Below, in pieces: positions 12,295 to 12,913 of a DNA stretch of 48,579 bases; position 1 is the stretch's first letter, and the number at the start of each line of letters is the position of its first letter. The stretch lies in contig JAYUKY010000057.1 in NCBI GenBank assembly GCA_043764015.1, positions 1 through 48,579 of the forward strand. Reading direction: 5' to 3'. The notes beneath the pieces were generated by a model. It was given only the letters and a program-made list of their open reading frames with translations. It was not told where the DNA came from and searched no databases. Position numbers and translations under genes: made by a program. The stretch comes from Raineyaceae bacterium. GTDB taxonomy: Bacteria; Bacteroidota; Bacteroidia; Cytophagales; Thermonemataceae.

Positions 12295-12402
12295 AAGTAA
12301 TCAAAAAATCTAAAAAATTTATCAAAAAAATAATGTTTTAGATTTTAATACTATGGACATTTTTTTAAATAAAATATAAATTACTGATAATCAAATACTT
12401 AA

Positions 12403-12712
12403 TGTGTGCGGGTATAAGGAACTTTTTAAAAGCTATATTTTGTGCCTCTACACAGATAATTTCGCTATCTAGCACTCAAATATCCCTGCACCGTCAGCTA
12501 AAGCAGACGGCAATGGACAATGAAAAAACAGTAAAAAAGATATTTTATAATGCTTTTTTCTTTGCCGTCTGCTTTAGCTGACGGAACACAGATTTTTGAG
12601 TGTCAAAGTGGTAGCAAATAAGCCTTTAAAAGTTCATTGATTAAGTTTTAAAGCAGTTTCTGACTTTATAACAAAAGTTCCTTATAGCCTTGGTTTTATA
12701 CCCTGCGGATAG
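12403..12712. repeat. About 310-bp nested inverted-repeat element; candidate MITE or structured RNA
   Basis: Three nested arm pairs. Outer: ataaggaactttt (12415-12427) vs aaaagttccttat (12674-12686). Middle: acacagat...tttgagtg motifs on both sides. Inner perfect 23-bp pair: ccgtcagctaaagcagacggcaa (12490-12512) vs ttgccgtctgctttagctgacgg (12563-12585). Confidence 0.5.
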
Positions 12713-12784
12713 GTTATTTACAATATATTAGTAACGTGTTGCAAATAAGTTCCTAATTTTAAAAAACTAATTTTTATGTATAGC

Positions 12785-12857
12785 GGTGGCGTAAACGCCA
12801 CCGTTACACATAAAACCATTTTTGACTTTGATATAAAGAGGTGGCGTTTACGCCACC
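12785..12857. terminator. Two inverted 18-nt GC-rich palindromes (ggtggcgtaaacgccacc / ggtggcgtttacgccacc) downstream of lysA
   Basis: Each 18-mer is itself a hairpin. The second is the reverse complement of the first. The pair is GC-rich in an AT-rich context and lies just 3' of the minus-strand lysA stop. Confidence 0.5.
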
Positions 12858-12913
12858 TAGAATAGAAAAATAAAACTAGGACTTTATTTGCAACTTGTTA
12901 CTAAGTAATACAT

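Follow-up and report, generated by a model that had tools for sequence, protein, structure and literature searches.

A probable lineage-specific insertion of palindromic repeats between lysA and clpS of a Raineyaceae bacterium and its likely link to subclass 1.2 Y1 transposases

The lysA-clpS spacer

Contig JAYUKY010000057.1 of a Raineyaceae bacterium (assembly GCA_043764015.1), whose whole 48,579 nucleotides are referred to here as the window, contains a 661-nt spacer between the minus-strand genes lysA (diaminopimelate decarboxylase) and clpS. This spacer is considered here, together with a family of short hairpins that forms its centre and recurs in other genomes. An original prediction had described the spacer as gene-free and packed with nested hairpins, and had offered three candidates: a MITE (miniature inverted-repeat transposable element), a regulatory RNA in the clpS leader, or an elaborate lysA terminator. 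The spacer indeed has no credible open reading frame (ORF), just short spurious ones, and consists of two separate long imperfect palindromes, A and B. The features of the locus are as follows.

11923-12252, minus strand: clpS, with its ATG at 12252; an ORF whose homologues carry PF02617, at 87-88% identity at best
12292-12299, minus strand: conserved -7 box of the clpS promoter, TACTTTTG, between the block and clpS
12335-12913: lineage-specific block of ~580 bp, absent from orthologous lysA-clpS spacers
12408-12706: palindrome A, three nested layers of inverted repeats; folds as DNA with -66.6 kcal/mol, z -9.8
12408-12426: outer shell of A, left arm; partner of 12673-12706, with no homologue elsewhere in the fetched DNA
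12673-12706: outer shell of A, right arm; holds a 10-nt bulge
12728-12904: palindrome B, bounded by 34-nt inverted repeats at 12728-12761 / 12871-12904 (TTAGTAAC..GTTGCAAATAA.TCCTA)
12914-12916, minus strand: TAG stop codon of lysA, at the junction with the block
12914-14158, minus strand: lysA; an ORF whose homologues carry PF02784/PF00278, at up to 99% identity (P0001)

The innermost layer of A is a perfect 23-bp pair, as predicted (CCGTCAGCTAAAGCAGACGGCAA at 12491-12513, reverse complement at 12562-12584); it has no match in any shuffle of the window, with zero expected by chance, and it extends to 48-nt arms (12473-12520 / 12555-12602) that are 83% complementary. The outer pair is also present (12410-12426 / 12673-12689, 17 nt, 94%) and can be extended to 12408-12416 / 12697-12706. 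For the middle pair the pairing exists but the coordinates given for it were merely approximate: it is made up of the extension of the inner arms and a weaker gapped pairing, 12430-12447 / 12609-12626. The two GC-rich 18-mers of B lie where they had been placed (GGTGGCGTAAACGCCACC at 12785-12802, GGTGGCGTTTACGCCACC at 12840-12857), and the 34-nt inverted repeat that encloses both GC hairpins (85%) is an addition to the earlier description. B is a hairpin doublet within a longer palindrome, the same design as A.

The large multi-stem fold that had been expected on either strand is far beyond that of shuffled sequences, both as RNA and as DNA. The 661-nt spacer folds as RNA with -206 kcal/mol on the minus strand (z -17.9) and -199 kcal/mol on the plus strand (z -13.2); as DNA, the core of A (12473-12602) reaches a z-score of -12 on either strand and B one of -10.8. 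GC-rich hairpins with a TWWA tetraloop number four in the window, all of them in the spacer, against a shuffle mean of 0.08. ARAGORN reports no tRNAs. Rfam 15, searched at gathering and permissive thresholds with the window, the spacer and five to six loci of the hairpin family, gives no match at gathering score in the spacer or the loci, a tmRNA elsewhere in the window alone reaching it; the spacer and the loci yield sub-threshold look-alikes of (plant) miRNA hairpins alone, which in the spacer reflect the long hairpin.

Orthologous spacers and the clpS promoter

A protein of the Raineyaceae (Cytophagales) metagenome-assembled genome (MAG) GCA_043771315.1 shares 99% identity with LysA; three proteins of the window have no exact counterpart on record. 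This MAG is the closest relative by lysA (comparison loci L001-L004, 95% nucleotide identity); it keeps synteny from lysA towards plsX but has other genes beyond the lysA stop, where synteny breaks exactly, and is therefore unusable as an empty-site control. More informative are L008 and L009 (87% nucleotide identity), in which lysA is followed by a ~170-bp spacer with its own terminator hairpin and then by clpS, and L010 (81%), which has neither A nor B within its 127 bp upstream of clpS. The match to the window picks up again exactly at the lysA stop and at the clpS promoter, the positions being 12328 and 12916 for L008/L009 and 12334 for L010. Because the block is absent from these spacers, its presence is most simply read, from the alignments, as an insertion in the lineage of the window.

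The C-terminal residues of LysA also vary from relative to relative (EEKI*, EEKINK* and EEKVLA*; window 12914-12920, L001 11240-11260, L008 825-845), and with the break of synteny at the stop codon this marks the lysA 3' end as a recurrent point of rearrangement. On the other side of lysA, the 95%-identical relative has a gene for a 1192-aa protein with Por_Secre_tail and Ig repeats between lysA and plsX (L001 5972-9940), which the window lacks at 14221-14340.

Between the block and clpS, the columns GATTACTTTTG at 12292-12299 (minus strand) are invariant in the window, L008, L009 and L010. The -7 promoter box of Bacteroidota has the consensus TAnnTTTG, which we take these positions to fit, and the conserved box predicts a clpS promoter at this place. 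The element sits over 100 nt upstream of this box and is absent from the orthologous spacers, so it is not part of the clpS leader, contrary to one of the original candidates. The wider reading, in which the block encodes either a cis-regulatory RNA of the clpS 5' leader or a small RNA of its own, would account for the strong RNA folding, but it must contend with the same two observations, with the lack of an Rfam family and with the company that the hairpin family keeps elsewhere: the 150 ORFs nearest the motif comprise 172 Pfam families with no gene preference, which rules out a gene-specific regulator. The reading is already largely refuted, and we hold it to be very improbable.

The position of the promoter bears equally on the reading of the block as an inverton, a promoter segment that a site-specific recombinase turns. 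Bacteroidota are rich in invertons, and inverted repeats flanking 100-300 bp upstream of a gene would suit one; here, though, the segment is palindromic throughout its interior and not at its ends alone, there is no adjacent recombinase gene, and the clpS promoter falls outside the block. An inverton is scarcely credible.

The hairpin doublet in palindrome A and its dispersal

The core of A resembles the doublets of repetitive extragenic palindromic (REP) sequences known as REPINs (REP doublets forming hairpins), and comprises the following features.

12440-12625, limits approximate: REPIN-like unit of two REP hairpins, a conserved arm of ~35-45 nt on each side and a central spacer
12491-12514, minus strand: REP hairpin copy 1; CCGTCAGC-TAAA-GCAGACGG followed by CAAT on the plus strand, ATTG-CCGTCTGC-TTTA-GCTGACGG on the minus strand
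12561-12584, plus strand: REP hairpin copy 2; TTTG-CCGTCTGC-TTTA-GCTGACGG, head-to-head with copy 1

Each copy is a 20-nt imperfect hairpin, CCGTCaGC-TAAA-GCaGACGG, with seven pairs, one A.A/T.T mismatch, a TAAA loop and at its foot the tetranucleotide ATTG or TTTG (CAAT or CAAA on the other strand). Both 23-mers are perfect, whereas the remaining 25 positions of the 48-nt arms hold 8 mismatches; this fits selection on the recognition hairpin. Neither self-BLAST of the spacer nor a relaxed hairpin pattern finds a second spacer copy in the 48.6-kb window, and the pattern of a small GGCTWWAGCC hairpin finds nothing further there.

Longer homologues of the core occur at unrelated loci in other genomes. 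One (L061), 84-86% identical, belongs to the MAG that also yielded the 95%-identical relative (L003); three others (L107, L116 and L043), from MAG JANYGM01, are 77% identical over 142 nt. Together they delimit the unit to ~12440-12625. The JANYGM01 elements (L107 150-200, L116 6410-6450, L043 1760-1800) end in a canonical GTAG-headed hairpin, GTAGGGGCTGGGCTTGCCCC, which adjoins the CCGTC hairpin, so that two REP styles stand within one element.

When species-representative genomes were scanned with the exact inner 20-mer, CCGTCAGCTAAAGCAGACGG, matches numbered at least 119 stretches, spread over at least 81 assemblies that belong mainly to Bacteroidota (Cytophagales, Bacteroidales, Chitinophagales, Saprospiraceae and Prolixibacteraceae), Balneolales, Ignavibacteriales and Acidobacteriota. 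Several genomes have three to five hairpin loci, five being the maximum per genome among the matches listed, and inverted pairs ~100 or 157 nt apart are found at many public loci. Over 146 instances among the matches listed, the hairpin and CAAT(g/t)nA alone are conserved; a small GCTAAAGC hairpin stands 30-33 nt upstream in 83 of the 146. The family is strongly extragenic: 9 of 154 instances fall inside ORFs of at least 150 aa, though such ORFs make up 81% of the loci. Variant hairpins, for example CCGTTCAC-TTTA-GTGAACGG and CCGTTGCC-TAAA-GGCAACGG, keep the stem through compensatory changes; at least three of the four inner pairs are retained in 18 of 19 variant types, many by such changes.

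Two further arrangements were seen. L026 (6498-7889) has four direct copies of the 20-mer in 1.4 kb, each with ~70 conserved nucleotides to either side, forming an irregular tandem array and not doublets. The 24-mer of hairpin plus CAAT occurs in four viral or proviral IMG/VR contigs (L135-L138), twice in two of them.

A proposed Y1 transposase partner

At L080, two inverted copies of the hairpin bracket a 144-aa ORF, with small GGGCTTTAGCCC / GGGCTAAAGCCC hairpins just inside. The ORF encodes a Y1/HUH transposase (Pfam Y1_Tnp, E 4e-27) that scores 66.5 bits against the NCBIfam model transpos_IS200 (cut-off 55) and 31.9 bits, below the cut-off of 80, against REP_Tyr_transpos, the model for REP-associated tyrosine transposases (RAYTs). 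Its nearest solved structures are TnpA of IS608 (best PDB match, E 9e-8) and TnpA of ISDra2; the Escherichia coli RAYT is not among its PDB matches.

The association is recurrent. At 8 of the 119 listed loci, from Bacteroidota, Balneolaceae and Acidobacteriota, a transposase homologue lies no more than ~100 nt from the motif, and inverted hairpins flank a Y1 gene at L080, L095, L094, L139 and L141. Y1_Tnp is the sole recurring mobility family among the 150 ORFs nearest the motif. All seven full-length copies that adjoin a hairpin have the motif Y-x3-Q-x2-HH (Y---Q--HH), the signature of subclass 1.2 of the TnpAY1 proteins (Quentin et al., 2018; PMC6006769). Members of this subclass are IS200-like but do not behave as insertion sequences (IS), and associated DNA was not reported for them; REP-like partners are reported for class 2 subclasses and class 3 only (Quentin et al., 2018; PMC6006769).

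A reciprocal test used three loci picked from 1303 protein homologues without use of the DNA motif. At L139 tnpA is present three times in tandem, and after each gene come GGCTAAAGCC, the exact 20-mer, CAAAGGATA...TATCCTTTG and a further hairpin, CCGTTGGCTTTAGCCAACGG, in a head-to-head layout as in the window. L141/L142 have a variant, CCGTTGGCTAAAGCCAACGG, on both sides of the transposase, and L140 carries the variant hairpin CCACGGCTTAAAAGCCGTGG. On these variants, the hairpin is seen in sequence comparison to co-vary with the transposase protein.

Some details of these loci deserve separate mention. The subclass 1.2 tnpA copies of L139 (4290-6151) are ~715 bp apart with identical REP clusters between them, and there the stop codon of tnpA and a small hairpin, GGC-TAA-AGCC, overlap. 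At L018 (3396-3728) a REP hairpin lies within the tnpA ORF, and the frame reads into the hairpin, giving ...VRQLKQTAIN.

Palindrome B and possible lysA termination

The hairpins enclosed by the terminal repeats of B are the following.

12772-12815: GC hairpin 1; core GGTGGCG-TAAA-CGCCACC at 12785-12802, with an extended stem of 21 nt
12839-12858, minus strand: GC hairpin 2; followed on the minus strand by CTTTATATCA; terminator-like, 56 nt past the lysA stop

Of the candidate role as an elaborate lysA terminator, a marginal part survives: the hairpin at 12858-12839 (minus strand) fits the terminator pattern, and, judged by this pattern, the lysA-proximal hairpin of B probably now acts as the lysA terminator. 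The block as a whole might then be kept mainly for a cis function in the host, as a strong hairpin barrier in both directions, whether to end lysA transcription, to shield the lysA 3' end or to insulate the clpS promoter, with its origin as a repeat secondary. The placement of the block between stop codon and promoter agrees with such a role, as do the terminator-like hairpin itself, the terminator hairpin that L008 has in the same place, and reports that REPs terminate transcription and stabilise mRNA (background of PMC6006769). The dimensions do not: 580 bp, four GC hairpins and a z-score of -18 far exceed the needs of a terminator, for which ~170 bp suffices in the relatives, and both strands fold equally well, as DNA palindromes would. 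Maintenance chiefly for a cis function is possible but unlikely.

Terminal repeats resembling those of B are present in MAG JANYGM01 (L032 794-924 and L116 132-174). A metagenome scan with the terminal repeat returned five single 21-nt matches with no further similarity, which are probably due to chance and were set aside. A kinship of the outer arms of A with the terminal repeats of B, suggested by the shared words AAGTTCCTWA and GCAAATAAG, is too weak to be used. The Haemophilus influenzae REP GTAGGGTGGGCTTTAGCCCACC, a match from the literature, is a different, GTAG-headed REP with a shape like that of the hairpins of B.

Mobility and target-site duplications

The suggestion that the spacer holds a MITE stands in so far as the element appears to be mobile and non-autonomous: it is absent from the orthologous spacers, its core is dispersed, and longer homologues exist at other loci. 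The classical ~310-bp MITE that had been proposed does not stand. An exhaustive boundary search found no target-site duplication (TSD) of at least 5 bp flanking A or B in the window, the sole candidate being an ambiguous TATA that is itself part of the repeat; homologues are limited to ~12440-12625 and omit the outer shell; and the recurring partner is a Y1/HUH transposase and not a DDE enzyme, which points to a REP/REPIN-like element as the class.

The rival case is that A, B or both are nonetheless MITEs, deletion derivatives of a DDE IS that move by cut-and-paste through terminal inverted repeats (TIRs) and carry the REP hairpins as mere cargo. Like bacterial MITEs, which have TIRs and TSDs and depend on DDE enzymes, the element is small, non-coding, palindromic and intergenic, with presence/absence polymorphism and TIRs on both palindromes (17-19 nt in A, 34 nt in B), and the B-like terminal repeats recur in another MAG, as described above. 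Further support comes from a complete chromosome of Pyrinomonadaceae (OZ243957.1), where three units of 256 nt, each bearing a doublet, are 94-96% identical at distant sites.

L029 1578-1833: first 256-nt unit of OZ243957.1
L123 668-923: second 256-nt unit
L126 7395-7650: third 256-nt unit

The ends of this unit are GGTAGTGAACTAAAAGT. It is bounded by 21-nt terminal repeats, GGTAGTGAACTAAAAGTRATG, and by 8-bp TSDs (AAAGTTTT, AAATTTTT and TCTTTTG[C/T]) in three of three copies; Y1 enzymes are not known to make TSDs of this kind. Elsewhere the picture differs: in three other genomes, doublets of ~140 nt stop exactly at TTCATTG...CAATGAA and lack a TSD. In addition to lacking a TSD in the window, the element departs from MITEs in that no related DDE IS was found, no DDE transposase recurs among the 150 neighbouring ORFs, the shell of A has no further copy in the fetched DNA, and the conserved part is the internal hairpin and not the termini. 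Taken together, a MITE origin of A or B is distinctly unlikely.

Relation to known systems

Among the closest counterparts are the REP sequences, with their mosaic (BIME) and REPIN forms, and the RAYTs of E. coli and Pseudomonas. Shared with these are the short imperfect palindrome with a foot tetranucleotide, the extragenic location, the common pairing of copies as inverted doublets, each able to fold as a single long hairpin, the nesting of doublets inside longer palindromes, which is reported for some REP families (PMC3733652), and copies that bracket a small Y1/HUH gene in inverted orientation while many gene-less copies lie elsewhere. The differences concern the enzyme, the head and the distribution. 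RAYTs belong to class 2, with the motif Y---NP, whereas the partner of the hairpin family belongs to class 1, subclass 1.2 (Y---Q--HH); the GT[AG]G head of REPs is replaced by the ATTG/TTTG foot; and the 20-mer spans several phyla at the low copy numbers seen. The element works like a REP/REPIN-RAYT system yet fails two of its defining features, the GT[AG]G head and the class 2 transposase.

The nearest transposases are those of IS200/IS605 elements (IS200/IS608 TnpA), and with these elements and their gene-less derivatives, the palindrome-associated transposable elements (PATEs), the family also shares a hairpin with an internal mismatch and the lack of a TSD, both at the window element and at the ~140-nt doublets. 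The hairpins at the ends of IS200/IS605 elements have the same orientation on one strand. Here the gene-flanking hairpins are inverted (L080), the doublet of the window is head-to-head, and no tnpB partner occurs among the 150 neighbouring ORFs; because its hairpins are inverted and not direct, a usual IS200/IS605 derivative was rejected.

The transposases themselves agree with TnpAY1 subclass 1.2 (PMC6006769) in the Y---Q--HH motif (seven of seven), a length of ~144 aa, the Y1_Tnp core and occurrence in Bacteroidota. Beyond the subclass as described, a conserved hairpin family here brackets the genes, members occur also in Acidobacteriota and Balneolales, and one locus has three tandem copies; the subclass is characterised by a low copy number per genome.

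The CGTC-tagged REPs have an unpaired CGTC head, A-T first stem pairs and a CCA tail (Di Nocera et al., 2013; PMC3733652). Common to both are the letters CGTC at one end; the CGTC-tagged REPs occur in Bacteroidetes, are mostly head-to-head dimers and lack a known dedicated transposase (PMC3733652). In the present family CCGTC pairs with GACGG as the foot of the stem, the first pairs are G-C and the tail is CAAT; since CGTC is an unpaired head in the CGTC-REP family, identity with it was rejected on the published definition (PMC3733652). A literature search of incomplete coverage found neither the hairpin nor any REP partner of subclass 1.2 described.

Interpretation

The structure of the spacer, its absence from orthologous spacers, the dispersal and extragenic bias of the hairpin and its association with a Y1 gene are directly established. 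On this basis, the spacer is probably a ~580-bp lineage-specific insertion of two palindromic repeats, in which the core of A is a REP/REPIN-like doublet tied to subclass 1.2 Y1 transposases. We infer by analogy that the subclass 1.2 enzyme would mobilise it via single-stranded DNA; Quentin et al. (PMC6006769) summarise how hairpins are recognised, the guide tetranucleotide and the cleavage of REPs. As with TnpA of IS608 and TnpA-REP of E. coli, the hairpins would form in single-stranded DNA; the transposase, supplied in trans, would bind them and cut and rejoin the strand beside the foot tetranucleotide; and this cutting and rejoining would most likely be how the doublet came to lie between the stop codon of lysA and the promoter of clpS.

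Several observations weigh against this account. The polarity of insertion over deletion rests on two relatives of 81-87% identity. Neither the outer shell of A nor the GGTGGCG hairpins of B (GGTGGCGTAAACGCCACC) have a homologue in viral contigs or in the ~1 Mb of loci fetched; a REP model leaves both the shell and these hairpins unexplained. The 48.6-kb window contains no Y1 transposase gene and a single doublet, set against the tens to hundreds of copies per genome that are typical of REPs, and the MAG of the closest relative has one exact 20-mer match among the matches listed. The invariance of the hairpin across phyla is partly ascertainment, given a search with the exact 20-mer and the variant hairpins at loci chosen by protein. 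Finally, the 8-bp TSDs in all three Pyrinomonadaceae copies sit poorly with a Y1 enzyme.

A broader proposal can be made tentatively, as one that could well be correct but to which we do not commit: that the hairpin and the subclass 1.2 Y1 transposase form a REPtron/REPIN-type partnership, not found described, in at least Bacteroidota, Balneolales and Acidobacteriota (the motif occurs also in Ignavibacteriales), with a recognition hairpin that is near-invariant against protein identities of 47-60%, with TIR/TSD carriers in some genomes, and with the element of the window as one decayed colony. If so, subclass 1.2, the 'non-IS' subclass, would gain its missing DNA substrate, usable in biochemical tests, and the REP/REPIN idea would extend from the class 2 RAYTs of Proteobacteria to a class 1 enzyme of Bacteroidota and Acidobacteriota. 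The meaning for the locus is limited: palindromic repeats are parked in the spacer, between terminator and promoter, at a site that differs among close relatives and at which synteny breaks. The feature is real and has a good explanation; the locus as such is ordinary but leads to a variant of the REP-transposase theme that is probably undescribed.

Other features of the window

Intergenic DNA of the window holds a scattered motif, TTGATTATCAA..CTTTTGTATTCATTC with tandem heptamers (TTCGTAC, TTCGTAA, TTCACAA and GAGTTGT) after it, which looks like a promoter of this lineage with a heptamer-repeat leader, as judged from its letters. MAG JANYGM01 has it as well, L107 7435-7465 being 100% identical to window 22830-22860. 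Its sites in the window are:

8004-8056: dispersed heptamer motif
9689-9741: same motif
10669-10748: same motif
11823-11875: same motif
17570-17644: same motif
18450-18524: same motif
20726-20832: same motif
22722-22861: same motif
23855-23927: same motif
29087-29174: same motif
34415-34478: same motif
36940-37076: same motif
46133-46172: same motif

The window also holds a tmRNA gene at 38565-38937, seen with Rfam (RF00023, 98 bits) and absent from the ARAGORN output. Short palindromes, AACTTCCCGAAAGTTGGAAACTTTCGGGAAGTT and AAAAGCGCATTTTACAAGTGTAAAATGCGCTTTTT, form two near-identical pairs (94-95%) at 1697-1737 / 4514-4554 and 41908-41942 / 46174-46208; the members of each pair are kilobases apart and look like terminators.

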